From: an uncultured Acidimicrobiaceae bacterium
Lineage (GTDB): Bacteria > Actinomycetota > Acidimicrobiia > Acidimicrobiales > RAAP-2
Length of the DNA stretch: 64,000 nucleotides
Direction: 5' to 3'
NCBI GenBank assembly: GCA_963764305.1
Contig: CAVXSD010000009.1
Location: forward strand, 369,949 to 433,948
Below, piece by piece: positions 1,096 through 53,782 of this stretch (position 1 is the first letter of the stretch; each line of letters opens with the position of its first letter). A program made the position numbers and the translations under genes. The notes under the pieces were generated by a model that ran no database searches, was not told the DNA's origin, and saw nothing but the letters and a program-made list of their open reading frames with translations.

Positions 1096-1122
1096 TGTCA
1101 CGTTCGAGTCGTGGCCGGTGTC
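1096..1122 (+). promoter_or_regulatory. Candidate ECF41-type promoter (TGTCACG-N16-TGTC)
   Basis: TGTCACG at 1096-1102, a 16-nt spacer, then TGTC at 1119-1122. The known ECF41 consensus is TGTCACA-N16-CGTC. It lies about 35 nt upstream of the CMD start, which has a GAGGAGG RBS. Confidence 0.4.
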
Positions 1123-1155
1123 TCATGGTGAAAGCAAGTCACCCGAGGAGGCATT

Positions 1156-1735
1156 ATGGCCAGCAGTACACGGATCCCCCAGGCAGAACTGACCGGACTC
1201 TACGGCGCACTGGTAAAGCGGATGTCGCGCAGAATGTTCGGAGAGGTGCCCGAACCGGTCGGGGTGACGTGGCACAACAGAAAGGTGTTGAACTTCAGCT
1301 TCGGCGTCGGTCGAAAGGCCCAGAAGTGGGACCGATGCGACGAGAATCTGAAATCGTTCGCCCACATGGCGGCGGTCAGCCTCGTCGGTTGCAGCTTCTG
1401 CCTCGACTTCGGCTACTTCCACGCCCACAATGAGGGACTCGACGTCAAAAAGGCGCGTGAGGTGCCGCGCTGGCGGGTGTCGGATGTGTTCACGCCGCTC
1501 GAACGCGACGTCATGGAGTATGCCGAAGCGATGACGCAGACCCCGCCGACGGTGACTGACGAACTGTCGGCTGGACTGCTCAAGGCGCTGGGTCCGGCCG
1601 CCCTGGTCGAAACTCACCGCATTCATTGCGCTGGCCAACTTCATGGCCCGCTCCAATGTCGCCATGGGCATTGAGTCCCAGGAGTTCTCGGCCGCCTGTG
1701 ACCTCAAGCCGCTCGCCCTAGCCTCGTCAGCATGA
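1156..1735 (+). pseudogene. Carboxymuconolactone decarboxylase (AhpD-like) family protein with a +1 frameshift near the 3' end
   Basis: CMD-like sequence (CSFCLDFGYF, TPLERDVMEYAEAMT). After GAAA at 1609-1612 the conserved tail LTAFIALANFMARSNVAMGIESQEFS continues in the next frame. That frame ends at TGA 1733-1735, overlapping the sigma ATG (ATGA). Confidence 0.75.
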
Positions 1736-2595: not shown

Positions 2596-2835
2596 CGTTC
2601 GGCGGTCACTTATGGGCTATCCCCATGGTGCGATTACGAGGGCCGTGCTGTTGCCGGCTTCAGCGCAGTCTTGAAGGGCAGTTGAAGGCCTTGCGACGTC
2701 CCGCCCGTTCATAGAGTCTCGGGTCCCTCAGTCATGAGGACGGTGTACCCACGACCAACACGTCATTAAGCGCCAATGAACTCTGTCCAGGGCAGTGCGC
2801 GACTCGGGCGGGGCCGCGCGTGCCAGGGCTGCTAG

Positions 2836-4548
2836 TCAGGTCCCGCGATCACCTTCCTCGCCCGGTCGTCCCACCACATCCAATTGCTCGTCGGCAAGGA
2901 GTCTTTGGACGAGCCGGACCGCGATTGAGCCCTCTCCTACCGCAGACGCCACCCGCTTGACCGAAGACCGCCTCACGTCTCCGGCTGCGAACACACGGGG
3001 CATGCTGGTCTCGAGTGAGTAGGGCTGTCGATCCAGGGGCCAGTTGGAAACCTCCGACACCTCTCCACCGGTGAGGAGGAACCCATTGGGGTCTCCTACA
3101 ATCTCTGGTGGCAGCCATTCCGTGTGAGGGTCGGCTCCGATCAACACGAACAATGCGTCAGCAGCGACTGTCTCTCGTTCGCCAGACCCTCTTTCTCGAA
3201 GCATCAACTGCTGGAGACGTCCCTCACCATCCCCGCCGACAACTTCGGTGCAGGTACGCACATCGAGGTTCGGCGTTGACTCGATCTCTTGGATGAGATA
3301 ATGCGACATCCCAACTTGAAGTGTCTGAGCCCGCACGACGAGCGTGACCTGTTTCGCATACCGCGCGAGATGGAGAACCGCCTGGCCGGCTGAGTTTCCG
3401 CCACCCACCACATACGCGACTTTGCCGCTCAGCGCAGGGGCCTCCGAGGCCGGCCCGCCGTAGAACACACCCGCCCCGGTCAATTCCTCAAGAGCAGGAA
3501 TACCGAGACGACGGTAGGTGGCCCCGACGGTCAGGATCACCGTTCGGGCCGTCACATGCCGTTCGTCAGCAAACGAGAGGGTGAGGAGGTCCCCCAAGCA
3601 AGTGAGGGCAGTGACGCGGTGCATGAACACGAAGGTCGCTCCGAACACTGAAGCCTGCTCGTAGGCCTGTTCGGCAAGCCGACTGCCGCTCACCCCTTTC
3701 GGAAAGCCCAGGTAGTTGCGAATCAGCGAGCTCGACCGCACCTGTCCCCCGATTCCGCCCTCATCGAGCACGAGGACCCGCAGGCCCTCCGAGGCGCCAT
3801 AGACAGCCGCGGACAGTCCCGCCGGCCCCGCACCCACAATGACGACGTCGTAGGTGTCTTCGTCGAAGTCGCTCGTGACCCCAGCGGCCTCTGCGATTTC
3901 CATGTTGGACGGATCGCTCAGAACCCGGCCGTCAGGAAGCACCATCATGGGGAGTTTGGCCTCGGGTCCTGCCTTGGCGAGCAGTTCACGCCCCTCAGTG
4001 GAGTCCGCCAGGCAAAAGGCGTGCGGAACCGCGCAACGCTCGAAAGTCTCCCTGAGCTCATACGCCCTGCCCGACCAGTCCTGACCGACAATGTGAATGG
4101 TGTGCGGGACCGTCCGTCGTTCGGTTGCCCACTCGAGGAGGAAGCTCGTCACGGACTCATGGAAGACCTCATCGGGTGGCCCACCGGGCCTAATTGCGTA
4201 GTAATGCACTCGCCCCAACGCGATGGAGGAGCGAAGCACATCTGCCCTCGACCTGTCTGCCCAGACATCCGGGGCAACCAGAAGCGCGCACTTCGCGTGC
4301 GGGTGGAGCTCGCGCACATGTTCGAGCAATCCACCCGAGGCGGTAACGGCCTCCGACTGCCCGACGAGTACCAGGGCAATATCCTCGGCGGCTTCCGCCA
4401 ACTCGGTCAGGCGCTGTCGTGCCAGTACTGGATCCCCGAGACACTCGACGCGATAGTCGTGCGCGTACCTTTGGCTCAACTGAGTCTTGAGAACGCCAAG
4501 GGTCCGTGGGTCCTCGTCAAAGGCGAACAGAACCGGGAGCGCCATCAT
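2836..4548 (-). CDS. FAD-dependent pyridine nucleotide-disulfide oxidoreductase (thioredoxin-reductase-like) with a roughly 230-aa N-terminal extension
   Basis: Two Rossmann motifs (VVIVGAGPAGLSAAVY, VVGGGNSAGQAV) and a TrxR-like C-terminus (VFAAGDVR). Start chosen at ATG 4548, which overlaps the upstream stop (ATGA). Confidence 0.85.
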   Translation of the reverse strand: MMALPVLFAFDEDPRTLGVLKTQLSQRYAHDYRVECLGDPVLARQRLTELAEAAEDIALVLVGQSEAVTASGGLLEHVRELHPHAKCALLVAPDVWADRSRADVLRSSIALGRVHYYAIRPGGPPDEVFHESVTSFLLEWATERRTVPHTIHIVGQDWSGRAYELRETFERCAVPHAFCLADSTEGRELLAKAGPEAKLPMMVLPDGRVLSDPSNMEIAEAAGVTSDFDEDTYDVVIVGAGPAGLSAAVYGASEGLRVLVLDEGGIGGQVRSSSLIRNYLGFPKGVSGSRLAEQAYEQASVFGATFVFMHRVTALTCLGDLLTLSFADERHVTARTVILTVGATYRRLGIPALEELTGAGVFYGGPASEAPALSGKVAYVVGGGNSAGQAVLHLARYAKQVTLVVRAQTLQVGMSHYLIQEIESTPNLDVRTCTEVVGGDGEGRLQQLMLRERGSGERETVAADALFVLIGADPHTEWLPPEIVGDPNGFLLTGGEVSEVSNWPLDRQPYSLETSMPRVFAAGDVRRSSVKRVASAVGEGSIAVRLVQRLLADEQLDVVGRPGEEGDRGT

Positions 4549-5195
4549 TGAACTGCCTCCGAGGGTTGACCAGGAAGCGGCTTCCAATAGTCGAGTCCCC
4601 TCCGATTCCGACTCGAGGAGGCGCTTGTGGCGTGCACGTCTTCGAACTGAGGAGCTTCGTCCTCGAGCGTCAGCTCAACGCCATTCGCGGCGAAACTGAT
4701 CGCGTGGTACCAGCCGCACAGCATCAGCAAGTCGAGGATCTCGACTTCAGTCAATTCTTCCGACAGGCGTTCCCATAATCCGTCAGGGATGCGACACTCG
4801 TCGTGCAGGGCATCGGCGACATCGATCAGGACTCGATCTCTCTGGTTCGCCCAGCACGGATCCCTCGACGCACCGTGGGTCAATGAGCTGATCTGCTCGG
4901 TAGTCAACCCGACCCGGTTGGCGAAGAATGCGACGTGGACGCCCCATTCGTACTCACAGCGACAGCGTGCACACGTTCGATCGATCACGATCTCTCGGTC
5001 ACGCATCGACAACGACAGGCGTTTGCTCAACTCGTAGCTGCCCCACGCCCCCATCGCGTTCGTCATCGCAAGGTTCTTCACAAAGGTACGAAACAGAAGT
5101 ATCGGTGGAACGCCCGGAGGCATCATCGCCTCCAACTGATCGCCCACGTCATCCTCATATGGTGGTTGTACTGGACTAATTCTGGACAGCATCAC
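4545..5195 (-). CDS. Carboxymuconolactone decarboxylase family protein
   Basis: 216 aa, intact. CMD-like CxxC region (RTCARCRCEYEWGVHV). Translationally coupled to the downstream oxidoreductase. Confidence 0.8.
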   Translation of the reverse strand: MMLSRISPVQPPYEDDVGDQLEAMMPPGVPPILLFRTFVKNLAMTNAMGAWGSYELSKRLSLSMRDREIVIDRTCARCRCEYEWGVHVAFFANRVGLTTEQISSLTHGASRDPCWANQRDRVLIDVADALHDECRIPDGLWERLSEELTEVEILDLLMLCGWYHAISFAANGVELTLEDEAPQFEDVHATSASSSRNRRGLDYWKPLPGQPSEAVQ

Positions 5196-5211
5196 TCACC
5201 TCCGGTGTTTT

Positions 5212-5250
5212 GATTTCCGAAACCTTTGCCATGGTAACGTTTCGGAAATC
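5212..5250. promoter_or_regulatory. Perfect 12-bp inverted repeat (GATTTCCGAAAC-N15-GTTTCGGAAATC), candidate HxlR operator
   Basis: Located in the roughly 90-bp divergent intergenic region between the CMD operon start (5195) and the HxlR start (5285). The arms at 5212-5223 and 5239-5250 are exact reverse complements. Confidence 0.5.
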
Positions 5251-5284
5251 GAAATGCAATTGGTTCAAGGATCGGGAGGGCTCG

Positions 5285-5641
5285 ATGGCTCGCAGCACAA
5301 CTCCGAAACCGGGGCAGGAGGTTCGGGGTTCGACCACGGGGCGCCCTCTGATGGCGGCAATGGATCTTCTGGGACGGCGTTGGGCGCTCCGAATCCTTTG
5401 GGAGCTCCAGGCTGGGCCCATCGGAGCAAGAGCCCTTCAGGCCAGGTGCGACGGCATGTCGTCGAGTGTCCTCTACGACCGCCTCAGGGATCTTGCGACG
5501 TCTGGACTCGTCGAACGGACGCACGATGATCAGTACATTCTGAGCGAGCTGGGCGCTGCGCTCGGATCCGCACTCAAGCCACTGGACACATGGGCTCAGT
5601 CCTGGGCGACATCGCTCCAGCACAGGCCGTACGAAGAGTGA
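5285..5641 (+). CDS. HxlR-family winged-helix transcriptional regulator
   Basis: The motif AMDLLGRRWALRILWEL ... SSSVLYDRLRDLATSGLV is typical of HxlR. The ATG at 5285 is preceded by GGGAGGG. Confidence 0.85.
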   Translation: MARSTTPKPGQEVRGSTTGRPLMAAMDLLGRRWALRILWELQAGPIGARALQARCDGMSSSVLYDRLRDLATSGLVERTHDDQYILSELGAALGSALKPLDTWAQSWATSLQHRPYEE

Positions 5642-5834
5642 GGTGGCGAAGTTGCCTTCAGCTGCCTCCCTGGCGTTTCCAATCGCTGCGAAAGAGGTGT
5701 CGGGACTCTCACGTCAACCCGGCTTCATCTGCTGGTCGTCGACGAGCGAACGTGCCGGTCGGTGCGCCATGGCCATGGTTCGCCATTGGTTCGTGGATAT
5801 GTCGCTTCTCCCTGATCGACGGGTTCGTTGCCGT

Positions 5835-6233
5835 TCAGCCGGGTGGTGCAAAGAACTCAAGCGCGATGCCGTCAGGATCCCGAAAGCTCAGCGCTGAGCC
5901 GTAGGCAGCGTCCTTGATTGTGCCGTGCTCGATGCCGAGCTCGTCGAGGCGCGACGCCCACTTCTCAAGTTCGTCGCGGTTTGCACAGCCAAAGGCCAGA
6001 TGATCCAAACCGACTCGGTATTCGCTGAACGACTCCCTTGGTGCAGACCGCTTGTGCCGATGTAACCCGAGGAGCGTTCCGCCATCGAGCAGGTAGACAG
6101 TGTGGTGAAACTCGGGGTCAGTGTCCTCGTCGATCACGGGCTCGGCGTCGAGAAGTGCCTCGTACCACGGAACGCTGACCGAGAGGTCCCGTACGGTGAG
6201 AGCCGCAGGTGTGATTGATGGGAAGGTGCTCAT
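5835..6233 (-). CDS. VOC (glyoxalase/bleomycin-resistance/dioxygenase) family protein
   Basis: 132 aa, intact, with a single VOC-like module (HHTVYLLDGGTLLGLH, GLDHLAFG, ALSFRDPDGIALEFF). Confidence 0.8.
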   Translation of the reverse strand: MSTFPSITPAALTVRDLSVSVPWYEALLDAEPVIDEDTDPEFHHTVYLLDGGTLLGLHRHKRSAPRESFSEYRVGLDHLAFGCANRDELEKWASRLDELGIEHGTIKDAAYGSALSFRDPDGIALEFFAPPG

Positions 6234-6373
6234 TAACTTCGCTCTTGCTCTCGGACCGTGCAGCGCAACTCCACGGTCAGTTCGTTATTGTCAAGACCAG
6301 CTTCTGCTCGAAAGGGGCCGGTGACCATGACTGAGCGCCCATGTGTGCGTGCCGGGACACCACACCGAGGGAA

Positions 6374-6897
6374 ATGAGTGCTTTGGAGGGCTCTGAGGAA
6401 CGCTGTCTGCTGGACTCAGCTCTCCATCAGCTTCGACTGGAAGGTGCAATCTTCTTTCGATCCGAACTCACGGAGGCATTCCATTCGAATCAACACCTCT
6501 GGCCCTCGCAAACGCGCTTCATCCTGGGGCGACGCGCCTGATCCTGTTCCACATCGTGGCCCAGGGAACTTGCTGGGTTTCAGGTGAGGACGAAGAGCGG
6601 CACTGGGCAAGTCCGGACGACGTGATCGTTCTTCCATACGGAGACCGTCACGTCATCGGTGGTGAAGCCCCCGCTGATCCAGTGTCGATCGTCAGGCTTC
6701 TCGATCCTCTGCCATGGAAAGATATCCCGCTCTTGCGCCACGGCGGCGGTGGGCGGCGTACCGACCTGGTTTGTGGCTACCTGTACTCCGAGGATCCCTT
6801 ATTCGACCCGGCGATGAGAGCATTGCCCTCCGTCTTCGTGGTTCGTCTCCCAAGGACACCGGAGGACACTGGGTCGAAGCAAGCATCACCTACCTTG
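6374..6897 (+). pseudogene. AraC-family regulator, cupin N-terminal half only, with two frame breaks and a truncated C-terminus
   Basis: LRLEGAIFFRSELTEAF is in one frame. PFESTPLALANALHPGATRLILFHIVAQGTCWVSG is in the next (switch near 6480). HWVEASITYLVD is in a third (switch near 6850). No HTH domain follows. Confidence 0.6.
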
Positions 6898-7046
6898 TCG
6901 ACCTCGGCGACGTCACGATCGGGCGACAGCACCGCCACGGCAATCGATTCCTTCGACACGTCCATCCCCAAATGGATGAATCCTCGGTCGGCAATACCGG
7001 ACACGGCACGCTCCTTCCTTCCGCATGTCGGCTCCGTCCACCGCAC
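6893..7046 (-). mobile_element. IS110-family transposase N-terminal remnant
   Basis: The minus-strand reading IHLGMDVSKESIAVAVLSPDRDVAEVDK matches the characteristic IS110 N-terminus (GIDVSK..xAVAVL). It stops after about 35 aa where the AraC fragment ends. Confidence 0.45.
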
Positions 7047-7121
7047 AAGTGAATGATCCGCGTAAATGCGGACGCCGGAGGAGCTGGCCGTTCCATACTG
7101 AATGGGGGCACCTCGGTCCCT

Positions 7122-7769
7122 CTAAAGGGGCGCCAGCCTGAGGATGTCGGCCAGCCACGCTTCAGCGTTTGGAGTGCCGAGGTCGGGGTTGATGTCGAAG
7201 CGGTCGGAATTGAGCGAGTCGATCCGCCAGCCGGATCGGAACGCGGCGCGCAGCTCGCCATCGGTGACGCGACGGGGGCCCCAGTCACCGGGCTGACGGT
7301 CGCTGAAACACATCAGATGAAGGTGGCCGCCTGGACGTAGAACCGCATGGAGGGCCGCGACATACCGGGTACGGGCAGCGTCGTCGAAGACGTGGAACAA
7401 CCCACTGTCGAGTATCGTCTGGAAGGACCCTTCGAGCGCGTCGAGGCGGAGCGCGTCGAGGCGGAGCGCGTCGAGAACCTGGAAGATGGTCTCGACCCCA
7501 CGCTCAGCGGCTTTGCGCCGGGCGATCTCGATCGCGCGCGGGGAGATGTCAATGCCGAGGGCCTCAGCGCCGCGGCGCGCAGCAAGGATCGTGTGCTCGC
7601 CGGTCCCGCAGCCCGCGTCGAGGAGGGCACCGGTGAGCGCGCCGGCGTCGGCGAGACGGAGAAACGCGGGCTGGGGGCGGCCGATGTCCCACGGCGGCGC
7701 CGGGCCCGTGTACGAGTCGTCCCAGTCGTGGGCTGGGCCGGTTGCAGTCATGTGACCATTCTCGCTCAA
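7122..7769 (-). CDS. Class I SAM-dependent methyltransferase
   Basis: Motif I LLDAGCGTGEHT, followed by GIDISPRAIEIARRKA. Intact 215-aa ORF. Confidence 0.85.
   Translation of the reverse strand: MSENGHMTATGPAHDWDDSYTGPAPPWDIGRPQPAFLRLADAGALTGALLDAGCGTGEHTILAARRGAEALGIDISPRAIEIARRKAAERGVETIFQVLDALRLDALRLDALEGSFQTILDSGLFHVFDDAARTRYVAALHAVLRPGGHLHLMCFSDRQPGDWGPRRVTDGELRAAFRSGWRIDSLNSDRFDINPDLGTPNAEAWLADILRLAPL
7434..7475. repeat. 15-bp tandem repeat, about 2.8 copies (GAGCGCGTCGAGGCG), in frame within the methyltransferase
   Basis: Copies at 7434-7448 and 7449-7463, partial copy at 7464-7475. Encodes DALRL-DALRL-DALE on the minus strand. Confidence 0.9.
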
Positions 7770-8166
7770 CTGGGCAAGCGAGAGGCGCGTCTATCCAATG
7801 AACGGGGACAGTGTCAGGAGGCCGTTGCGCGAGTAGTGAAGTGGACTACTAACCAAGAGACGGGGGGAGGCGTGGCCTGCATCGTGCCGTCATGGATCAC
7901 CGCCCAGCATCGCATCGGCCCGACAAGGAGACCAGATGGTGGTCACCGGGCTGTGGCATCGGCCTGACGGGGCAACCGTACACCGGGGGAGGATCAAGGT
8001 CCGCCCGCGGTCCAACCGAAGGCGCATGATTGGACCGGTCACCCCCCATTCGGACCGTTGGCGATCGGTCACGGTGACGGGCGTCATCTCAGCGCATACT
8101 CAGTGCGCGTGCAAAGTTGCATTTGGTCATCCGACTCGATAGACCGCCGCCGCACCCCCAGAGGCG

Positions 8167-8448
8167 ATGACTGCGCGCCCGCCGATCGAATGGCTCATGA
8201 CGCCCGACGCCCGACGCCCGACGCCCGAGCCCGAGCCCGATGACATCCTACGCCGCCCTGAGTGGCACCGGGCCGCCTGGAGGGGCGTGTGGCCGGACGT
8301 GTTCATCCGTGGCCCGAAGGCGGACCACGGGACGAGCCGGACGCCGTGCGAGGACTATTCGGAAGGGCAACGGTGCCTCGAGATCACGCCGGCCGATGAC
8401 TCGTTAGGGGGTCTGTGGACGGGACTGCGGACGCCGGACGCCGCGTGA
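8167..8448 (+). CDS. WhiB-like (Wbl) protein lacking two of the four conserved cysteines (degenerate or divergent)
   Basis: EWHRAAWRGVWPDVFI ... PCEDYSEGQRCLE ... GGLWTGL aligns with the Wbl pattern W..A.C....PdlFF ... C-x2-C-x5-C ... GvWGG. TGG (8278-8280) and TAT (8356-8358) sit at two of the Cys positions. Confidence 0.5.
   Translation: MTARPPIEWLMTPDARRPTPEPEPDDILRRPEWHRAAWRGVWPDVFIRGPKADHGTSRTPCEDYSEGQRCLEITPADDSLGGLWTGLRTPDAA
8201..8240. repeat. Microsatellite: (CGCCCGA)x4 followed by (GCCCGA)x2
   Basis: Direct count: 7-mers at 8201-8228 and 6-mers at 8229-8240. Lies inside the N-terminal Pro/Glu-rich tail of the Wbl-like ORF. Confidence 0.9.
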
Positions 8449-8499
8449 TGCGTCGGGCGGAGGCGTAGGTCAGTCGGCCCCTGTCTTCAAAGGGGCCAA

Positions 8500-8680
8500 T
8501 CTCACCTGACCCCCTCCGACGGGGCTTCGCTGGCTGGGAGCCAGGTTCTCGATGCAGGGGCCGCTGACCCAGCGGGGGTGACCAAGGTCCAATTCGAGCT
8601 CACGGGTGGAACGCTCAGCCAAGCGGTGATCGCCACCGGCACGCCGACCGTGTTCGCGTGGCTGGCGAAGTGGGACATGA
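8500..8680 (+). pseudogene. Fragment resembling a bacterial Ig-like domain
   Basis: SDGASLAGSQVLDAGAADPAGVTKVQFELTGGTLSQAVIATGTPTVFAWLAKWD resembles Ig-like domains of actinobacterial secreted proteins. There is no start codon or continuation. Confidence 0.25.
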
Positions 8681-8703
8681 GCGGGTTAGGGGGGCTCTCT
8701 GGC

Positions 8704-8931
8704 CTACTCATGCGACAGTTCCAGCCGCGTCCGCTGATCCAGCCGCGTCCGCTGATCACCGATTACGCGTGCGCCTGCCCAAATCAGCAGTGAACCTACC
8801 AAGCGCCGCGACCGAGCGAACCATTGCGAATGCTTGCGGAGTCGGACTCTTCCCTGCCGTGCGTGGCGGCGCTCATTCAGTAGATCCTCATGTCTGGCCT
8901 TCGCGAGGGCCCGTAACACATCGGGGTGCAT
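8704..8931 (-). CDS. Small hypothetical protein (75 aa, Arg-rich)
   Basis: The N-terminus MHPDVLRALAKARHEDLL resembles small actinobacterial hypothetical proteins. Contains an 18-bp tandem duplication. Confidence 0.4.
   Translation of the reverse strand: MHPDVLRALAKARHEDLLNERRHARQGRVRLRKHSQWFARSRRLVGSLLIWAGARVIGDQRTRLDQRTRLELSHE
8721..8756. repeat. 18-bp perfect tandem duplication (CCAGCCGCGTCCGCTGAT x2)
   Basis: 8721-8738 is identical to 8739-8756. Encodes DQRTRL-DQRTRL in the minus-strand ORF. Confidence 0.9.
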
Positions 8932-9380
8932 CGTTGCTCCTTAGGGACGAAGGAGAAGTATTTCGACAGGGTGTGACAATGGCCACGGCACGGCAGAGAT
9001 CGCCGTAGTAGGTACGGGAGGGGAGCCGTCCGGGATTGCGCATATCACAGAGCTGGAGAATTTCATGGGAAGGATGGTGGGTTGGTCAGTTCTCGGGATG
9101 CAACATGATCGTCATCGTCGCGTGGCTCGGGGGGATTGGACAGTCGGATTTCCACCGAATGGCGTCCGCCGGTCGGTCCCCAAGGTCCGTCATCCGCCTG
9201 GGACATCCGCTAGGTCAAAGAAAGTGCAGGGTCCCGTTCGCCGGGACCGTTACTGCCGGTGCGGTGGTATGACTTCTTTAGATACTTCCCCCTGAAAAAG
9301 TCGCCGTAGGTGCTCGCGATTTGAGCCCCGATCGATAAGGATGGCCCCGAACCGTAGGACTAGTACGGATCGAGGCCATC

Positions 9381-10766
9381 GTGTTGAGAACTGTAAACGC
9401 GCAGCCCACATTGTGGGAAGCGATCCTCCCCGAGATGTGCCTCGGGATGCCGGCCGAGCTCGAGGCGGTTGACCGGCTGCTCAACGATCCGGCCTTCTTC
9501 GAGCCGTTCCGTGCACATTTCCACGCTGCGCTCGGGCGCCCGTCGGTACCGATCGAGACGTACTTGCGTCTGATGTTCTTGAAGTACCGCTACCGCCTCG
9601 GCTTCGAGCCGTTGTGCCGGGAGGTCGCCGATTCGATCTCGTGGCAGCGCTTCTGTCGGATCCCGTTGGGCACGACGGTGCCGCATCCGACCACCTTGAT
9701 GAAGATCACCACCCGGTGCGGGTCATCCGCGGTCGACGGCTTGAACGAGGCGCTGCTGGCCAAGGCCCAGGCCGCCAAGGTCTTGAAGACCAACAAGGTC
9801 CGTGCCGACACCACGGTGGTCCCCGCCAACGTCGCCTACCCGACGGACTCGGGCCTGATGGCCAAGGGCGTGGCCAAGATGGCCAAGGCAATCGAGAAGC
9901 TCAAGGATGTGGGACTGGCTTCGAGGACCAGGTCGCGGGACCGAACTCGGATGATGAGGGCCCGGGCCCGCTCCATCGGCGCCAACCTGCGACGACGCAG
10001 CGGCGAGGCAAAAGACGAGGTCATGGCCATCAACGCCGACATGGTCCGCATCGCACACGTTGCCGTCGACGAGGCCCGCCAAGTCGCGGCGAACGCTCTG
10101 CGGGCGCTCAAACGCCTCGGTGACGCCGCCCCAAGAAGGCTCTGCTCCATTGCCGGCGACTTGGCGATGACCGCCGGTCGGGTCGCTCAGATCGCCGAAC
10201 AGACCGAGAAGCGTCTCGGTGGCGAAGTTCCCGACGGAGCGACCAGGCTGGTGTCGCTGCACGACCCCGATGCCCGCCCCATCCGCAAGGGTCGGCTCGG
10301 CAAGCCCGTCGAGTTCGGCTACAAGGCCCAGGTCGTCGACAACGAGGACGGCGTGGTGATCGACCACAACGTCGAGGTCGGCAACCCAGCGGATGCGCCC
10401 ATGCTCGTCCCCGCCATCGAGCGCGTCGCCCGGCGGGCCAGGCGCATGCCCAAGGCAGTCACCGCTGACCGCGGCTATGGGGAGAACGCGGTGAGAGTCC
10501 AGCTCGGCGCGCTCGGGGTGCGAACCGTCGTCCTTCCGACGAAAGGTAAACCGAGCGCGTCACGGCGCGCCGTCGAGAGCAGGCCGCAGTTCCAGCGCCT
10601 GGTGAAGTGGAGAACGGGAAGCGAAGGTCGGATCAGCTGCCTCAAACGAGACTTCGGTTGGAGCCGAACACAGATCGACGGCATCGAAGGAGCACGCACC
10701 TGGTGCGGTTATGGGGTCTTCAACCACAATCTGGTGAAGATCGGAGCACTGACAACCTCCGAATAG
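9381..10766 (+). mobile_element. Intact DDE transposase of the IS5 superfamily (type usually annotated ISNCY), 461 aa
   Basis: InsH-like N-terminal domain (ETYLRLMFLKYRYRLGFEPLCREVADSISWQRFCRI). DDE core (VRADTTVVPANVAYPTDSGL, HDPDARPIRKG, VTADRGYGE). I could not identify terminal inverted repeats. Confidence 0.8.
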
Positions 10767-10883
10767 GGCGAATCGAACCCAGCACCCCCACGATGCTGAG
10801 GGAACTCCACGATCTGGACGCACGCGTCGACTCGACCTCGGTCCTGGGTGCGCTCCGATCGAGTCGTGGTTCGCCAATGGTCG

Positions 10884-11689
10884 TCACTGCCTCAGCCAGT
10901 TGTCGACGAGAGCGTCAACACCTCGGTGCAACCGGTCTGGAATTCGATGACCGCACGAAGGCCATCGGACGTCTCCACTTCCTTCCTCGCGGTTCCCCGC
11001 GGAGGCCGCCTGGGTCGGAGGCCCGTAGAATGTCTTGAACTCGGCGAGGAGCTCGGACGGCGTGCCCGCGAAATTGCCCGCGAAATTGAAGGTGTACGTG
11101 TCCCGCTCCAACGCGATCTGCCCTGCGGTGACACCCGCGCCGGCGAACCTTCGATCACGTGCTCCTCGACTGCCCACGTCATCGGGCTGATGAATCCCTC
11201 TGGAGGAGGCGGGGAGTAGCTCGAGCTGATCTTGAGAACCTGGGCGACGAGCGTCGGGTCGTTGGGGATCCAATTGCCCATGACGATCCGGCCGCCGGGC
11301 GTGTGACCCGGACGACCTCCTTGGCCACGTTGTGTGGCCTTGGCGCGAACATGGCCCCGAAGATGCTGACCACGAGGTCGAAGCGATCGTTCTCGAGACC
11401 GTGCAGATCGGTGGGTGTCGCCTTGCCCGGATCGGCAGTTGGTCAACCCGAGGCTCCGAGCCCGGGCGTTGCCGGCCTCGACGAGGTTGCTGGCGATGTC
11501 GACCCCGAGCACGTTCGCCCCGAGGGCGGCGGCCGGTAGGGCGGTCGTCCTGTCCCCACACCCAAGGTCCAGGACCTCGAGATCCCTCGTGATCGCCAGC
11601 TCCTTGGCGAGCGCCTCACCGCTGTCCCGCATGCTGGCCGCAATTCGGGTGAAATCGCCTTTTTCCCAGAGTGTCTGTTTCGGATTCAT
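10884..11689 (-). pseudogene. Class I SAM-dependent methyltransferase with at least 3 frame switches
   Basis: GGGAGG precedes the ATG at 11689. VLDLGCGDRTTALPAA is in one frame, [39 protein letters not shown] in a second, and [17 protein letters not shown] back in the first. RFAGAGVTAGQIALERDTYTFNF is in the third. Confidence 0.7.
11063..11086. repeat. 12-bp perfect tandem duplication (GCCCGCGAAATT x2)
   Basis: 11063-11074 is identical to 11075-11086. Encodes the FAGN-FAG duplication in the methyltransferase pseudogene. Confidence 0.9.
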
Positions 11690-11929
11690 CTTCTTCGTTG
11701 CCTCCCGGGTCGTTGACACGTCATGACCGCAGCCCGGGTTGCCAGGGGCGAGTTTGAAACTCGAGCGCGGGTACCCCCTGCTGAGCTCTGGGCGCAGCAC
11801 CGCCCCGGGGGAGCACCCTTCACTCCGATGCTCGCGGGCTGGTCACGCTCACTGCCTGCGGGGCCACCTTCGGGCGCCTCTGAGGAGGTGACCGATCGCC
11901 GGCCCGAGCTCTCGTGCGGGTGGGCCGCC

Positions 11930-12756
11930 CTACCCGGGCTCGTCGGGCCGCGGGTTCGGCGCGAGGTCGGGCGCCGGCACCGCGATGGCCGGTGCCTCGG
12001 TGCCGCCGTCGATCTCGAACACCTTGCCCGTCACCCACGATGAGGCGTCGGACACGAGGTAGAGCACGGCACAGGCGATGTCCTCGGGCTCTCCCGGTCG
12101 TCCCAGCGGGGTGCCGTCGAGGAACTGCTGCCGCAGGGTGTCGTCGGTCAGGACGACGTCGAGCGAGCGCGTGGCAACGCCGCCGACGTCGATGGCGTTG
12201 ACTCGCACCCGTGGGGCGAGCTCGGGCGCGATGTTGCGCGTCATCCGGTCGAGCGCCGCCTTGGCCGCGCCATAGGCGACGAACATGGTCTGGGTCATGC
12301 TGGCCGAGCGCGACGAGATGTTGACGACGGCACCGGCGCCGACGGTGTCGACCATCTGGCGGGCCGCCAGCTTGGTCAGCGTGAGCGGCGCAGTGACATT
12401 GAACGCGAAGGTGCGGGCCATGAAGCCCTCGCTGGTCTCCATCGCGGCCCGGGGCATGGCGCCGCCCGCGTTGTTGACCAGGATGTCGAGGCGGCCGAAC
12501 TCCGTCGACGGCACGGGCCACCAGCTCGCTCGCAGGCGGCCGCGTCGGTGACGTCGGTGGGCACGACGAGCGCCCGGCGGCCGAGCGATCGGATCTGCGC
12601 CGCCACGTCCTCGAGGTCGGACGCCGTGCGCGCCGCCAGCACCACGTCCGCTCCTGCCTCGGCCAGGCCGATGGCGATGCCGCGCCCGATCCCGAGGCCC
12701 GCCCCCGTGACGATGGCCGACCCGGTCCCTGCGACGGAGAAGCGATCGAGGATCAC
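11930..12756 (-). pseudogene. SDR-family oxidoreductase (FabG-like) with 2 frame switches about 30 nt apart
   Basis: [12 protein letters not shown] and the N-terminal half are in the frame of ORF 12376..12888. ELVARAVD is in a third frame. [14 protein letters not shown] ... YGAAKAAL ... is in the frame of ORF 11930..13081. The GTG start at 12756 overlaps the upstream stop (GTGA). Confidence 0.75.
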
Positions 12757-13846
12757 GCCGGCGGGTGTCCCCGCCGGCTCCGGTGCAGCCCCGGCTCGGC
12801 CCGGCCGGCCACCAGGGGCAGGTCGAGGTAGGTGCGCAGTCCCGGGCTCGGCCTCGCAGACGTAGGGGATGGCGTTGACGCAGTGCAATGCCGTGGCGAC
12901 GATGCCCGGATTGCGGACGCAGGCCGGCCTCCACCGACTCGGGGTGCAACTTCTTGAAGGTGACGAGGCAGTTCGGATCGCCCGTGACCTCGACCTCGAA
13001 GCGTTCCCCGGCCGGCCCGAAGCCCCAGGCCGGGTCGAGGTGCTCCTCGCCCATCAGCCAGTTGACCGCCGCGGTGACCACCGGCTCGCCGTCGACCAGC
13101 CGCCTCCCACTTGAACCGCTGTGCCGCCACCGTCCCCGGTTGGATCGGGCCGATGGGCGAGTCGATCGGCGCCGTGGCGACCGCCATCTCGTGGGTGGTC
13201 CGCAGCTGCGGATCGATGTCGAACCCCAGCTCGTCGGCGACCATGAAGATCGACTGGCGGAATCCCGCGCCGAGCGCGTCGGTCATGATGCTGCCGCGCG
13301 CCTCCTCCGGGGTCTTGCCGAACAGCATCCAGTCGCGGACGACGTCGGGGGCGCCGTAGGTGCGGATGTCGGAGAACTCCTCGGCCCGCACGTGGGTGAT
13401 GGAGCCCGACAGGGCGGAGATCATGAGCGGGAACCGCTCGGTGATCCCCCCGGGGTGGATGCCGGTGCCGTGCAAGGTCACGCCGGCCGCCCGGGCGATG
13501 GCGTCGAACTTCTCCCGCTCCTCGCTCGGTGGGTAGAACCAGCCGAGCGGGGTGACCACGTTCTTGCCCGACTCCAGGATGGCGGCCACCACGTCGGATC
13601 GGCCATGAAGGGGCTGTAGAGGACGCAGTCGGCGTCGGTGGCCAGCAGCGCGTCGACGTCGCCGGTGGCGGTCACGCCCAATTCTCCTCGCGCCCAGCAG
13701 GACCCCGAGGTCCACCCCTCCTTGGCCGGGCTGTGGACCCAGGCCCCGGCGAGCTCGAGATCGGGATGCTGGAGGACCCCCTCGATGGCGGCACGGCCCA
13801 CCCCCCCGGTCGCCCACTGGATCACGCGGAAGCTCACGGGCCACAT
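12753..13846 (-). pseudogene. NAD(P)-binding oxidoreductase (DapB-N/saccharopine-dehydrogenase-like family) with 6 frame switches
   Basis: Conserved segments alternate between frames. In order they are RVIQWATGGVGRAAI..HSPAKEG, VDLGVLLGARR, GVTATGDVDALLATDADCVLYSPFMAD and DVVAAILESGKNVVTPLG...QRFKWE. These are followed by [13 protein letters not shown]..., [25 protein letters not shown] and [14 protein letters not shown]. Confidence 0.65.
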
Positions 13847-13936
13847 CCTTTGCTCGTCGGGACAGGCATCGCCCGGAATGATGCCACCTGGCCGGCGAAG
13901 TGACAGAGGTGCGGCGGCACCGTGGCGATGCTGCAA

Positions 13937-15220
13937 TCACCCGAGGGGCGTGAACTCCAAATGCAACCGTTGCAGGCCGCGCAAGATGTAGGTCGGCGCG
14001 TACTCGTACCGGCGTGCGCCGGCCGGGCCGTGTTCCGAGTCCGAGATCTCGATGTCGCCCATGCGGGCGAGGAGCCGCTCGACGCTGATGCGGGCCTCGG
14101 CCCGGGCCAGCGGCCCCCCGGGGCAGGAATGCGGGACCGCGTCCGAAGGCGAGATGCTCGCTGGCGTTCGGCACGGTCCAGCCGGAACTCGCCGGGGTCC
14201 TCGAAATGGCGGGGGTCTCGGCCGGCGGCTCCGTTGAGCACCATGATCGTGGTGCCGGCCGGGATGTCGACACCGCCGACCGTGCTCGGCGTGCGCGACA
14301 GGCGGAAGTCCCCTTGCACCGGGCTCTCCATCCGGAGGCACTCCTCGATGAAATCGGGAATGCGGGTGCGGTCCTCCCGGAGCAGTTGCTGCAGGTCGCT
14401 GCGCTCGCCGATCAACTGCAGCGCGGCGGCGAGCAGCCGCACCGTCGTCTCCTGGCCGGCCGAGAACACGTTGGCGGCCACCCGGACGACGTCGATCACT
14501 TCGGGCATCGAGCCGTCGGGAAAGGTGGCGGTCGCCAGGCCCGTCAGCACGTCGTCGCGCGGCTCGCGGCGCCGGTCCTCGACGTACGTCGTCAGCTGGT
14601 CGTAGAGGAACTCGAGCGGCGAGTGGCCGAGCGAGCCGGACCCCGTGCTCCCGAGCGCCTGGCTGTGTTGGCGGCTGCCCTGGAGCTCCTCGCGGAACCA
14701 CTCGTGGTCGGACTCGGGAACGCCCAGGAGATCGGCGATCACGTACAGCGTGAAAGGCCCGGCGAAGTCCCTGATGAGCTCGCACTCCCCGCGTGCGACG
14801 AACTCGTCGATCTGTCGGTCCGCCCGGCGCCACATGAATTCCTCGTTCTCCCTGAGGCGCTTCGGGGTGATCAGCCGCATCAGCATGCCCCGGTGCGCCT
14901 TGTGCTTGGGCGGGTCCATCGTGGTGATCTGGTCGCTGAACGGCAACTCGTCGCGGTGCTGCTCGATGAGGGCGCTGACGTCGTCGCCCTCGAGCGGGAC
15001 AGGGAACCCGGGGAACGGGCCGGTCACGGCATTGCACGACGAGAAGGTGGCGGTGTCGGTGTAGACCGAGACCGCCTCTTCGTAGCCCGTGACCATCACG
15101 ACGCCGTGGTGCGGCTCCGGCTGCACGGGGCATTGCGCACGCAGGCGCGTCGAAGTACGGGTAGGGGTCGACGACCAGCTCGCGGCCCCGGAAGAAGTCG
15201 ATGCCGTCGTAGTCGCTCAT
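13937..15220 (-). pseudogene. Cytochrome P450 with 3 frame switches
   Basis: MSDYDGIDFFRG.. is in one frame and the body (AGQETT, ESPV) in a second. PNASEHLAFGRGP is in a third, and HSCPGGPLARAE... to the stop is back in the first. One switch falls inside the haem-binding loop FGRGPHSCPG. Confidence 0.75.
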
Positions 15221-15368: not shown

Positions 15369-15674
15369 TCAGCCCCCTGGGGTGTGATGGGCCACGAGCT
15401 CGATCCAGGTCACGCTCGACGGGGCGCCGGTGATGCCCCCTTCGACGAGCGCCGCACCCAGCCGCTCTTCCATGAACCGGGCCTGGTGCTCGGGGGTGTC
15501 CCAGATCTCGGTCACGACCAGGTGCCCGTCCTCGTTGAGCCCGGCCGCGTGGACCTGGAGCCCGTCGGGCCAGTCGCCGGCGCCGGTTGCCGGATCGATT
15601 CCGAGGGCGGCGTTGACGGCCTCGTACTCCTTCGTCGTGACTCCTTCGAACTCGAGGATCAGCTGGGCCGGCAT
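15369..15674 (-). CDS. Small conserved hypothetical protein (101 aa)
   Basis: GGAGG lies 7 nt upstream of the ATG at 15674. Intact, family not recognised. Confidence 0.55.
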   Translation of the reverse strand: MPAQLILEFEGVTTKEYEAVNAALGIDPATGAGDWPDGLQVHAAGLNEDGHLVVTEIWDTPEHQARFMEERLGAALVEGGITGAPSSVTWIELVAHHTPGG

Positions 15675-15759
15675 GTCATACCTCCATCGTCGTTGCAACC
15701 AGGGTGGGCCCAGTATGCCCGTGCCACCTCTGTGTCACCTGAGGAACGCCGGGAGGCGC

Positions 15760-16137
15760 TCAGGCGGCCGGCCCGGTGAGCACCTCGAGCAGCACCGCGG
15801 CAGCGGAATGCTCGACGTCGCGAGTCGAGGTCAGTAGGACGACCCCGCTGCTCCCGGCCCGGGCGCGGAGCCGCGCCACGCCGTCGCGGGCCGGCGCGAT
15901 GGCCAACTCGGCCCGGTAGCGCACCGCGAACGCCTCGAACTTGGCGGGGTCGTGCCCGTACCAGCGCCGGAGGTCGGTGCTCGGTGCCACATCTTTCAGC
16001 CATTCGTCCATGGGCGCATCCGCCTTGGCCACTCCCCTCGGCCAGAGCCGATCGATCAACACCCGGGGCGTCCCGTCATCGGGATGATGGTCATAGACGC
16101 GCCGGATCTCGACCCGGGGCGCCCGGGGCCGGGTCAA
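15760..16137 (-). CDS. DUF488-family protein
   Basis: The motif VEIRRVYD..DGTPRVLIDRLWPRGV is typical of DUF488. The only in-frame start near the domain is TTG at 16137, which overlaps the PhyH stop (TTGA). Confidence 0.7.
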   Translation of the reverse strand: MTRPRAPRVEIRRVYDHHPDDGTPRVLIDRLWPRGVAKADAPMDEWLKDVAPSTDLRRWYGHDPAKFEAFAVRYRAELAIAPARDGVARLRARAGSSGVVLLTSTRDVEHSAAAVLLEVLTGPAA

Positions 16138-17012
16138 CCCAGCGCTTCCCGATACGGCCCCAGGTCGATGCCCGGATACCGGGCGGCGACGCCCAGGAGC
16201 GTCTCCTCGCACCAATAGCGATCGCCGGGCCGTGGAAAGCCGAAGAGGTCACGCTGCCGCACAGTGCACTGCGGGAGGAACTTCGCCCAACGCTCGGGCG
16301 ACTGCTTGGGCCAGGCCATCTTACCGCCCCAGGTGGTGCCGCGGACCTGAAAGTCGGCGAGGATCGAGAAGCGCGACCGGTCGGGACCCGTGATCTCCGA
16401 GCCGCGGTGGAGGATGTCGGTCCGGTAGAGAAGCAGTGTCCCCGCCGGCCCCGTGCACGGCACCTCGGCGTCGGCCAGCGACCCGAACGGCAGGTACAGC
16501 GGCGTGTACGCGACGTCCTTCCCGTCCTCGTAGGGCACGATGCGCGTGGGCCCATCCGCGGCGGTCACTTCGGACAGGAAGATGAAAGTCGTCAGCTGCT
16601 GGTAGCGGGGCTCGGGCCGCGGCACCACGAGGCTGTGGCTGCCGTAGTCGCGGTGGAGCGGCTGGTCGTAGTTCACGGCGCCGGCGTACTTGGCCCACAG
16701 CTCGACCTTGTAGAGATGCAGCTCTGCCGTCTCCAAGTAGCGCTCGGCGGCGTCCACGAGGTCGGGGTGCACCGCCAAGCGGTTCAGGTCCCACGAGCGG
16801 TAGGGGAACTCCTCCACGCCGGCGAATTGGCTCCCTGCGTAGCGCACGAACGCGGCCGGGTCCGCGAAGTACTGCCCGGGACGGGGGAAGTGCAGCCAGA
16901 GCGCTTCTTGGGCGGCCGCCAGCTCCTCGTGGCTCAAGAAACCCTCAAGGAGCGAGAAGCCCCGCTCGCGCACCTCAGCCAGCGTGGCGTCAGGAACCCG
17001 CATCGCCGGCAC
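16134..17012 (-). CDS. Phytanoyl-CoA dioxygenase (PhyH) family Fe(II)/2-oxoglutarate oxygenase
   Basis: 292 aa, intact, with PhyH-like HRD (QPLHRDYG) and distal His (RTDILHRG) motifs. Confidence 0.75.
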   Translation of the reverse strand: MPAMRVPDATLAEVRERGFSLLEGFLSHEELAAAQEALWLHFPRPGQYFADPAAFVRYAGSQFAGVEEFPYRSWDLNRLAVHPDLVDAAERYLETAELHLYKVELWAKYAGAVNYDQPLHRDYGSHSLVVPRPEPRYQQLTTFIFLSEVTAADGPTRIVPYEDGKDVAYTPLYLPFGSLADAEVPCTGPAGTLLLYRTDILHRGSEITGPDRSRFSILADFQVRGTTWGGKMAWPKQSPERWAKFLPQCTVRQRDLFGFPRPGDRYWCEETLLGVAARYPGIDLGPYREALG

Positions 17013-51499: not shown

Positions 51500-51817
51500 C
51501 GCCGGATTGGGGTGCAGCCAGCTGGCGTTGACCCAGTGGTTATCCCAGGACTTTCGCCAGCCCTCGGGGCCCGACCGCACGATCTTGCATGCAAACCGGA
51601 GAACGTTGGGCTCTTTCCGATTCTTCTGATAGTCCAAGAAGATGGGCTGATCGGAACCGGGACCGAAGTCTCCGATCTCGATCATCAAGTCCAGGTCGAC
51701 CTCAGCGGATGCAAAGAACCGCTCGTAACCCCGGCACTTCGTCGATACCCCAAGAGATCGAGGTACATTGCCGGGACGGCAGGAATGGCGGTGGCGAGAG
51801 ATGCAACTTCAACTAAG
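51458..51817 (-). pseudogene. SMI1/KNR4 (SUKH-1)-like gene, frameshifted, with its 5' end interrupted by the IS1380 insertion
   Basis: The C-terminal part is LMIEIGDFGPGSDQPIFLDYQKNRKEPNVLRF. The N-terminal-like part IPAVPAMYLDLLG lies in another frame and abuts the IS end at 51817/51818. Confidence 0.45.
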
Positions 51818-53441
51818 CCCTGATCCACCGACGAATAGAGTCTGATCGCGGTCGCGCATCCGCGAAAAGTGCCTTCCTGCAAGGGAAAATGGTGGTTACC
51901 ACAACGACCACATCCCCTACCGGAAGGCACTATTTCGATGCGCGTATCTTGCCACAGCCTCGACCGTCTCGACGTGACCTTCGACGACGAGCGTCTGGTG
52001 GCCAACGCTGGGCTTGATGCTGCCGGCGACATTGGCCCAGCATCTGGGCCTGCGGGAGCTCTTCGACGAACACGTCGACCTCGGCGATGCGGCGGGACGG
52101 GCCAATGTCGGCCACAAGGCCATGACGCTCGTCCACTCGGCGCTGGCCGGGGGCGACTCGATCGACGATGCCGATGTCCTGCGGGCGGGCGACACCCAGG
52201 CGGTGCTCGGCCACGTGGTGTTGGCGCCGTCGACGCTCGGAACGTTCCTGCGCAGCTTCACCTGGGGCCATGCTCGTCAGCTCGACCCGGTGGCCGGCGA
52301 GCTGCTGACACGGGCCTGGGCGGCCGGGGCGGGTCCGGGCGAGGAGCCGGTCACCATCGATGTCGACTCGTCTATCTACGAGACCTACGGGCTTGGCCAA
52401 ACAGGGCGGGACCCACTTCACCTACAACCACGTGCGCGGCTACCACCCTCTCTACGCCGTGACGGCCGGCACCGGCGACGTCGTGCACGTCCGCCTGCGG
52501 GGCGGCAACGCCCACCGGGTCGGGGGCGGCCAGCTTCCTCACCGAGACGTTCGCCCGGGTGCGGGGGCGGGTGCCAGCGGGCCGATCGTCCTGCGGGCCG
52601 ACTCGGGCTTCTACAGCCGCAACGTCGTCGACGCCTGCCGCCGGGCCGACGTGTCCTACTCGATCACCGCCAAACTCCACAAAGGCGGCGTGCAAACGGC
52701 CATCGCCGCCATCGACGAGTCCGCCTGGGTCGCCGATCCCCTACTTCCTCGACGGCGCCGACGTGGCCGAGACCACCTACCGGCCCTTCGGCACCAAGGG
52801 CCAGCCGTGTCGGCTCATCGTGCGCCGGGTGCGGCCCACACCGGGCAGCCAGCTGGCGCTGTTCGTCGAGTTCGCCTACCACGCCTTCATCACCGACCGC
52901 GAAGGCGACATGCTCGAGCTCGAGGCCGACCACCGCCGCCACGCCGAGATCGAGAACACCATCCGCGACCTCAAATACGGTGTCGGTCTCAACCACCTGC
53001 CGTCGGGGCGCTTCGGGGCCAACGCCGCCTGGCTGGCTCTCAACGTCATCGCCCACAACCTGGCCCGCTTCAGCACCCGGCTCGGACTCGGCGACACCCT
53101 CATCACCACCGAAACCCTCCGCCGCCACTACCTGAGCCTCCCGGGACGCCTCACCCGCTCGGCCCGACACCTCACCTTGCACCTGCCGGCCCGTTGGCCA
53201 TGGGCGGAGCGCTTCGTCGCTGCGCTCACCTGGCACCGCAACGTCTTGCTCGTGACCTGACCGTTCGTGTGGACGTGGCCCGAGCACCCTGCGGCCGCCA
53301 GTGCAGATCGCCGATCACAAGAAGCTCTGGTTCAACGCGTCCCTGAACACGTCACAGCCACTGACCACCGCACGGCACAGACAGGAGAGTTACACATCGT
53401 TGGCAGAAGCCGTCGCACCGAGGCCGATCGGTGGATCAGGG
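51818..53441 (+). mobile_element. IS1380-family insertion sequence (1624 bp) with perfect 14-bp terminal inverted repeats and a 5-bp target-site duplication
   Basis: The left repeat CCCTGATCCACCGA (51818-51831) is the exact reverse complement of 53428-53441. CTAAG flanks both ends (51813-51817 and 53442-53446). Confidence 0.85.
51938..53260 (+). pseudogene. IS1380-family transposase with 5 frame switches
   Basis: Conserved blocks occur in alternating frames, in this order: LDVTFDDERLVANAGL, LPATLAQHLGL...SSIYETYGLG, KQGGTHFTYNHVRGYHPL, AASFLTETFARVRG and AGASGPIVLRADSGFYS...DESAWVA. The last block, IPYFLDGADVAETTY...HAEIENTIRDLKYG, runs to the stop. Confidence 0.85.
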
Positions 53442-53782
53442 CTAAGTCGGATGAATGAGTCGAATCCGTTCGACTGGCACCGACGGCGCGCCGTAGCACT
53501 CGACTAACTCGGTCCTGTACTTTGCGTCGTCGTAAAGGGCCCGGATAGGCATCCTCGAAGCGCCTGGCTTGTTCCCAGTCGGCCGGCCACACCTCCCGAT
53601 CGACAAGCTCCAAGAGCAGCCCGGCAACGGGAGGGTGTCATCCACAACGCTTAAGAGATTAGGTGGGAGCGCCCACCTAATCGGAGCGTTCGGGGCTACC
53701 CCAAGGGGAATCCGGTGTGCAAACCTTGGCGGTCGTGAGTCTGGATTACGCCGCCAATCACCTGCTCGACGCTGTCTAGTAG

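Follow-up and report, generated by a model that had tools for sequence, protein, structure and literature searches.

Residual frameshifting indels are documented in Nanopore consensus sequences (PMC9262707). Classical long-read errors fall in homopolymers; in metagenome assemblies with collapsed strains, consensus errors arise at strain-variable sites (microdiversity). Broken reading frames are also found in pseudogene decay next to insertion sequences (IS), of the type known from Mycobacterium leprae and M. ulcerans. The locus described here lies in a window of 64,000 nucleotides, the whole stretch of DNA analyzed, which belongs to the metagenome-assembled genome (MAG) of an uncultured Acidimicrobiaceae bacterium (GCA_963764305.1). 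The assembly comprises 4.94 Mb in 10 contigs at 90.5% completeness, figures characteristic of a metagenome bin built from long reads. Four adjacent minus-strand genes of the window are interrupted by frame switches (Table 1). Very probably, these switches are errors in the consensus sequence of a long-read-type metagenome assembly, clustered where the reads of co-occurring strains were collapsed, and not the marks of a dying operon; in the living organism all four genes are most likely undamaged.

Table 1. Broken genes, their flanks and similar lesions elsewhere, in window positions
Feature	Position	Strand	Frame changes and state
Cytochrome P450, CYP150-like (PF00067)	13937..15220	-	+1 at 15148, 14173 and 14132
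NAD-binding oxidoreductase, DapB_N + DAP_DH_C (Pfam)	12753..13837	-	six private 1-bp indels: -1 at 13714, +1 at 13691, -1 at 13594, +1 at 13098/9, +1 at 12919/20, +1 at 12843-6
Short-chain dehydrogenase/reductase (SDR), adh_short_C2 (Pfam)	11930..12756	-	+1 at 12527 and 12505, 22 nt apart; additional in-frame +3 at 12724-12726
Class I SAM-dependent methyltransferase, Methyltransf_11/25/31 (Pfam)	10892..11689 (about)	-	+1 near 11415, -1 near 11300, -1 near 11150
IS element, DDE transposase of 461 aa (DUF772 + DDE_Tnp_1)	9279..10794 (transposase 9381-10766)	+	intact, adjoins the broken genes
109-aa gene, DUF488 (151 aa), PhyH (292 aa)	15369..17012	-	intact, no private frame-breaking indel versus L031
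TauD gene, near its 3' end	18373	-	+1, CT[C]G, third-position C/G doublet, versus L031
IS1380-type copy	51813..53446	+	six private 1-bp indels versus intact near-identical genome copies L037-L039
CMD/ECF-sigma module	1608	+	private +1, GT[C]G, third-position C/G doublet, backed by the loci of 9 relatives

A preliminary description, made from the sequence alone, had counted at least 14 frame switches in the four genes. Alignment to intact orthologues reveals at least 15, each of exactly one base. The earlier figures of three switches in the P450, six in the oxidoreductase and two close together in the SDR are confirmed, while the methyltransferase, previously credited with at least three, carries at least four: comparison with intact 270-aa orthologues by tblastn and three-frame translation adds at least one shift near position 10995. 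The single-base lesions of the four genes amount to approximately 10 insertions versus 4 deletions, and shifts in both directions occur, some of them spaced just 22-24 nt. As had also been noted, one switch (14132) interrupts the haem loop of the P450, where it separates FGRGP from HSCPG, and the start codon GTG of the SDR overlaps the stop codon of the oxidoreductase in the sequence GTGA (12753-12756), an overlap kept in relatives. Both flanks proved to be as intact as the preliminary description held them to be.

The references for these comparisons were L002 from the congener G024, the JGI contig loci L025/L027 and L031, and 10 further congeners, all with intact orthologues. Gene order is conserved in the relatives (ADH, PhyH, P450, DAP_DH-type oxidoreductase, SDR), and their intact operons share 82-92% nucleotide identity with the window. 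None of the 11 frame-switch sites in the P450, oxidoreductase and SDR recurs in any of 13 orthologous loci; the six oxidoreductase indels are private to the window in a 14-sequence alignment and against the 92%-identical L031 as well. In nucleotide alignment with L021 and L022, the methyltransferase sites are likewise private. The preliminary description had raised the question of whether the switches sit in homopolymers, and the answer is negative for the majority: of the 11 sites in the three best-aligned genes (P450, oxidoreductase and SDR), no more than 2-3 touch a homopolymer of at least 3 bases. No motif is common to all of the sites, and 10 of approximately 15 doublets read CG. The two oxidoreductase deletions (13714 and 13594) both occupy alignment columns in which the relatives vary.

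The privacy of the sites bears directly on the idea that programmed ribosomal frameshifting or transcriptional slippage restores the frames. Such recoding would agree with the conserved protein sequence of all segments and with the preserved gene overlaps. Against it, none of the 13 orthologous loci carries any of the shifts, the 15 different sites share no slippery motif and no homopolymer, and +1 and -1 shifts are intermixed at the short distances given above. We consider recoding scarcely credible, and the lack of conservation in relatives effectively refutes it.

Frame correction yields regular proteins. No stop codons appear in the corrected P450, oxidoreductase and SDR, in line with the earlier reading, a result that is weak evidence alone since long open off-frames are expected at 70% G+C. 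The frame-corrected P450 aligns along its full length to P450s of 426-427 aa and has the haem loop FGRGPHSCPG (FxxGxHxCxG); its best database match shows 89% identity over 100% of the length. The stitched sequence deviates at 3 of 281 conserved columns, in each case conservatively, which is inside the range of 120 intact homologues. The best database relative of the oxidoreductase shares 94% protein identity. The methyltransferase differs in having a 12-bp tandem duplication (11065-11088) and a diverged C-terminal (3') end; these may be genuine changes.

The surroundings of the locus offer an opening for an explanation by true gene loss. The adjacent IS element has three more copies in the same genome at 99-100% identity, and the homology to L031 ends at window position 10795, exactly at the IS. 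A very recent pseudogenisation would have begun with an IS-linked rearrangement at 10795, followed by loss of operon function or expression and by the accumulation of real single-base indels. The lesions do cluster in four adjoining non-essential genes, at a synteny break and beside an IS that is active and present in four copies; no such damage is seen in the core genes at 24-42 kb, and the 3' end of the methyltransferase has diverged. Furthermore, the closest lineage, L031, has here truly lost the P450 and the greater part of the methyltransferase, so that part of the clade can do without the locus. We nevertheless regard this course of events as unlikely, for the reasons that follow. The decay of the L031 lineage at the same locus took the form of deletions of 90 bp, 91 bp and ~1.2 kb; this is real decay, and it contrasts with the 1-bp lesions of the window, where the broken genes contain no nonsense codons and no deletions exceeding 1 bp. 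The ratio of 10 insertions to 4 deletions is opposite to the usual deletional bias.

Selection on the genes points in the same direction. Relative to L031, dN/dS is 0.147 in the oxidoreductase and 0.166 in the SDR, compared with 0.10-0.23 in six intact neighbours (0.098 in PhyH). The broken genes appear selectively maintained, and no relaxed selection is visible. Since dN/dS is at the level of the neighbours, the excess of neutral substitution is limited to approximately 0.01 per site or less. In bacterial mutation spectra, indels typically stand to substitutions in a ratio of roughly 0.1; with 8 indels over the 1.9 kb that oxidoreductase and SDR occupy together, the implied ratio would be several-fold to tenfold higher. 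A three-taxon count by codon position had given a raised ratio of positions 1+2 to position 3 on the oxidoreductase branch of the window (1.22), but this apparent excess of nonsynonymous change vanishes with the closer L031 as reference and is attributed to tree shape. Of the two interpretations that the preliminary description left side by side, a silenced operon decaying next to the IS is thus disfavoured by the lack of a nonsynonymous excess, the lack of nonsense codons and larger deletions, and the surplus of insertions over deletions.

The other interpretation, an error-rich stretch of assembly with collapsed strain variants, is favoured by this normal selection and by two further lines of evidence, the first of which concerns the bases inserted. 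In five of the six insertions in the oxidoreductase and SDR, the inserted base and the one beside it reproduce exactly the pair of bases that distinguishes L031 from L002 at that position (null probability of a match 0.07, P = 9e-6), the alleles being taken from relatives and not from polymorphism of the sample itself. At 12505, for example, the window reads GACG where L002 has GAG and L031 has GCG; at 12920 it reads CTGC against CTG in L031 and CTC in L002. When simulated insertions were passed through the same re-alignment pipeline, the test gave four of six matches versus a null of 0.054 (P = 1.2e-4). To judge from these sequences, the insertions look like both alleles of one strain SNP placed adjacently. 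A test for enrichment at third codon positions carries little weight by itself (P estimated at roughly 0.07), because each insertion borders two codon positions. Our literature search found no specific published description of an error that writes two alleles side by side.

These doublets suggest how the lesions could have formed. Reads of at least two co-occurring strains would have been collapsed in this stretch. At strain SNP sites, mainly third-codon C/G in a genome of 70% G+C, the consensus would have written both alleles consecutively, giving a +1 shift, and now and then the consensus step at such a site would have lost the base, giving a -1 shift. The sequencing platform, the mixture of strains in the sample and the exact step producing the doublets are all inferred. 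For real pseudogenisation, insertions on naturally polymorphic sites that copy the alternative allele (P ~1e-5) have no mutational reason. It is quite unlikely that the indels are real in the more specific sense that the P450/oxidoreductase/SDR operon and the methyltransferase were silenced very recently in this population, next to the active IS at a rearrangement breakpoint, and are decaying by unusual, insertion-biased single-base frameshifting at variable sites.

The second line of evidence comes from essential genes. In the same assembly, rpoC is frameshifted by an extra G that is absent from three congeners, and leuS is frameshifted such that its KMSKS half lies in a different frame; rpoB, dnaE, ileS and secA are intact. 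Frameshifts of rpoC and leuS are impossible in a living cell, which speaks against pseudogenisation and shows that the MAG carries consensus indel errors. The sequence around the rpoC insertion, GGCGCGCC[G]AGCGCGCC (site motif GGCGCGCCAGCGCGCC), is a GC-rich palindrome, and the insertion is found at the identical site in the MAG G045 of another species.

Similar lesions also occur in other parts of the window (Table 1). The frame break in the TauD gene appears in a GC3 frame segmentation too; this Viterbi segmentation worked at 70% G+C, while parts of 60-64% G+C were called non-coding and were excluded from the counts. The IS1380-type copy carries, in addition to its indels, 83 private substitutions that fall 22/8/50 by codon position, a pattern of purifying selection. 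By contrast, ~18 kb of core genes (24-42 kb) show about no private indels in multiple alignment, against 15 lesions in 4.3 kb of the broken genes. The errors are therefore patchy, and selection sparing essential genes could give equal clustering. Eight candidate private indels in the core region (22-42 kb), suggested by gaps in BLAST alignments, all disappeared on multiple alignment and represent alignment noise. Metagenome contigs were also scanned with exact patterns that span indel sites and accept either one or two bases at each of them, and no near-identical contig was found. Neither these scans nor the protein searches brought up an independent assembly of the strain.

A technical origin need not involve strain SNPs: local low coverage, as in a stretch spanned by a handful of long reads next to a repeat, or systematic context-dependent basecalling errors, for example at modified bases or GC-rich palindromes, might produce the lesions by themselves. 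The patch adjoins a 1.5-kb IS with 99-100% identical copies elsewhere, the palindromic rpoC site shared with G045 suggests a context effect, and the doublets are mostly CG. Random low-coverage errors, however, have no reason to favour the alleles of relatives; they should also add substitutions, none of which is visible in dN/dS. The IS and the genes beyond its other side are not uniformly affected, and a common motif is missing from the sites. We therefore judge such an origin very unlikely, and return to errors at collapsed strain variants as the preferred reading.

If that reading is correct, the finding is a warning about data quality and not a matter of biology. Gene calls in the MAG would list at least four fragmented "pseudogenes" where an intact, widely conserved operon most likely exists, and genus-level pseudogene counts, completeness estimates and pangenome presence/absence calls would be biased. 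The match to relatives' alleles, dN/dS relative to intact neighbours and the state of essential genes together form a possibly useful diagnostic that needs no reads.

Among known systems, the IS-adjacent decay of the Mycobacterium leprae and M. ulcerans type resembles this locus in the disruption of adjoining non-essential genes beside a multi-copy IS and in the loss of some of the same genes from a sister lineage. It differs in that dN/dS is not raised here, nonsense codons, deletions over 1 bp and a deletional bias are absent, and single genes have taken several hits without other damage. The locus also resembles the indel errors of Nanopore and PacBio CLR assemblies: single-base indels break conserved genes, as revealed by truncated-protein tests of the IDEEL type (PMC9262707). 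Indel errors of long-read MAGs share the few contigs, the moderate completeness, the involvement of essential genes (here rpoC and leuS) and the intact state of relatives. Unlike the classical long-read errors in homopolymers, the lesions are mostly outside such runs, insertion-biased and patchy, and lie on polymorphic, mainly third-codon sites. With the consensus errors that collapsed metagenome assemblies show where strains vary, the locus shares the extra base that equals the alternative allele, the clustering of lesions and the clean state of neighbouring core genes; the alleles here are inferred from related species and not from the sample's own reads.

Four consecutive minus-strand genes within 10884-15220, a region of about 70% G+C, are broken by at least 15 frame switches, every one of a single base, with a lesion spectrum of ten insertions and four deletions. 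On indirect but converging evidence, this broken stretch is very probably not biological. We aligned the window to orthologous loci from the congener G024 (L002, 84% nucleotide identity), from JGI contigs (L025/L027, 82%; L031, 92%) and from ten further congeners. The gene order ADH, PhyH, P450, oxidoreductase, SDR is kept in many congeners and metagenome contigs, and every locus of conserved order carries intact orthologues (P450 of 426 aa, oxidoreductase of 339-363 aa, SDR of 273 aa). The indels of the window are private, being absent from the aligned loci. The alignments uphold the frame-switch counts and positions given in the preliminary description; the GTGA gene overlap reported there is real, and L031 alignment and family assignment show both flanks, the transposase on one side and the genes at 15369-17012 on the other, to be unbroken. 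Recoding as a means of restoring the frames is effectively excluded.

Once the private indels are removed, no stop codons are left in the P450, oxidoreductase and SDR, the three best-aligned genes. The absence of in-frame stops noted earlier therefore holds there; it is little surprise, as open off-frames are unremarkable at this G+C in any case. The methyltransferase has a diverged C-terminus. It also contains, in frame, a perfect 12-bp tandem duplication (CAATTTCGCGGG x2, 11065-11088) absent from the orthologous loci L021 and L022; this duplication may be genuine or an error of the consensus.

Genes, private indels, allele doublets and mobile elements (window coordinates)
Feature	Position	Strand	Detail	Basis
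Cytochrome P450	15220-13937	minus	CYP150-like, PF00067	protein matches, family assignment
P450 private indels	+1 15148, +1 14173, +1 14132	minus	14132 interrupts FGRGP|HSCPG	alignment to orthologous loci
NAD-binding oxidoreductase	13837-12753	minus	DapB_N/DAP_DH_C	protein matches, family assignment
Oxidoreductase private indels	-1 13714, +1 13691, -1 13594, +1 13098/9, +1 12919/20, +1 12843-6	minus		orthologue alignment
SDR	12756-11930	minus		protein matches, family assignment
SDR private indels	+1 12527, +1 12505, +3 12724-6	minus	+3 in frame	orthologue alignment
Class I SAM methyltransferase	about 11689-10892	minus		family assignment
Methyltransferase shifts	+1 near 11415, -1 near 11300, -1 near 11150, at least 1 more near 10995	minus		
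Doublet GACG	12505		L002 GAG, L031 GCG	
Doublet CTGC	12920		L031 CTG, L002 CTC	
Doublet CCCG	12843		oxidoreductase	
Doublet GGCG	13691		oxidoreductase	
Same doublet type, P450	14132; 14173		CCC/CCG; CGT/CGG	
Isolated private +1, C/G doublet	18373		CTC/CTG, near 3' end of TauD	
Isolated private +1, C/G doublet	1608		GTC/GTG, CMD gene, ECF-sigma module	
IS, 1.5 kb	9279-10794		DUF772 + DDE_Tnp_1 transposase, adjoins broken genes	
IS1380-type copy	51813-53446		six 1-bp indels	
Same doublet type, IS1380-type copy	52010 and 52735			

We tested the idea that an inserted base and its neighbour represent the two alleles of one variable site. In five of the six oxidoreductase and SDR insertions, this doublet consists of precisely the two bases that distinguish the two nearest relatives at the site, where random insertions would give such a match with a chance of 0.07 (P = 9e-6). 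With simulated insertions re-aligned identically, the count is 4/6 against a null of 0.054 (P = 1.2e-4), and with all 13 relatives it is 6/6 against a null of 0.33. Both oxidoreductase deletions fall on columns variable among relatives. An alternative allele beside a variable site is expected where two strains have been collapsed into one consensus; mutation, and hence a genuine recent pseudogenisation of the four genes, would have no reason to insert it there. The stretch is accordingly most likely a localised cluster of errors in the consensus, probably arising at SNPs between collapsed strains, where the alternative allele would have been inserted beside the variable site. Other technical causes of the frame switches retain only a very slight probability. 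A homopolymer origin, a possibility raised with the initial observation, was rejected: only 2-3 of the 11 well-aligned sites touch a run of three or more bases, and the explanation therefore fails.

The four broken genes do not look to be decaying. With L031, the closest relative, as reference, the oxidoreductase has a dN/dS of 0.147 and the SDR one of 0.166 (dS about 0.2), both within the range of six intact neighbours (0.10-0.23). Neutral substitution after any inactivation can therefore amount to no more than about 0.01 per site. The two genes together carry 8 indels in 1.9 kb, a ratio of indels to substitutions several-fold to tenfold above bacterial mutation spectra. The stitched P450 departs from residues conserved at 97% or more in 3 of 281 columns (F>L, V>I, K>Q), a level that falls within the spread of 120 intact homologues. 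In a three-taxon count, the oxidoreductase branch of the window had seemed to carry an excess of nonsynonymous change; this signal was gone with the closer reference L031, and is therefore attributed to tree shape.

Real gene loss at the same locus does occur in the L031 lineage (JGI contig Ga0683294_0000650; lesions at 7500-8000 and 9940-10350 of that locus), and this speaks for pseudogenisation. There the P450 was removed by a deletion of ~1.2 kb that leaves roughly its last 180 nt, deletions of 90 bp and 91 bp affect DUF488 and a 109-aa gene, and the methyltransferase is reduced to remnants, while the oxidoreductase and SDR are intact. This is a picture of real decay, unlike the lesions of the window. 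Between the decaying operon and the error-rich assembly first proposed, normal dN/dS, allele doublets and frameshifts in rpoC and leuS favour the assembly errors, and recent pseudogenisation is improbable, keeping a small share of our confidence.

The IS adjoining the broken genes is one of four copies in the genome, the three others being 99-100% identical, and lies exactly where L031 synteny ends (10795), which suggests that the IS mediated a rearrangement or that the assembly was joined at the repeat. The broken stretch thus ends beside a structural difference, where the strains in the sample could plausibly be heterogeneous, and it may be linked to such heterogeneity. Elsewhere in the genome, the IS1380-type element has three intact copies that are nearly identical to one another (L037-L039, 473-aa ORF) and from which the window copy differs by 5%. 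Of the 83 substitutions private to the window copy, most are at third codon positions (22/8/50 by codon position), so that it looks functional apart from its six indels, a distinct functional variant that carries them. At 60-65% G+C, positions 1-9278 and 43000-64000 are less GC-rich than the core (about 70%), and congeners offer few loci orthologous to them; both parts have the look of accessory or mobile DNA.

The assembly (G000; 4.94 Mb, 10 contigs, completeness 90.5%, contamination 4.1%), in which the window occupies G000:C9:369949-433948 and whose protein matches place it in the Acidimicrobiales, is error-prone, in patches. Outside the window, the essential single-copy rpoC (L108, G000:C10 about 203,180-203,225) is frameshifted by an extra G inside a GC-rich palindrome, GGCGCGCC[G]AGCGCGCC. 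The extra G is absent in the genomes G024, G050 and G006 and identical in G045 (L114), a few-contig MAG of a different species; its presence in both G000 and G045 argues for a technical cause. The essential leuS is also frameshifted (L122, G000:C1 about 381,340-381,395), its N-terminal part (model positions 3-557) and KMSKS-containing part (600-842) lying in different frames. Intact are rpoB, two dnaE paralogues, ileS and secA, and in the conserved core of the window (24-42 kb) none of 8 BLAST candidates for private indels was left on multiple alignment. In the collections searched, neither protein searches nor pattern scans of metagenome contigs turned up a second, independently assembled genome of this strain. 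That frameshifting indels persist in consensus sequences and MAGs built from Nanopore data is documented (PMC9262707). The Nanopore consensus errors are attributed there to homopolymers, whereas the sites in the window lie mostly outside them.
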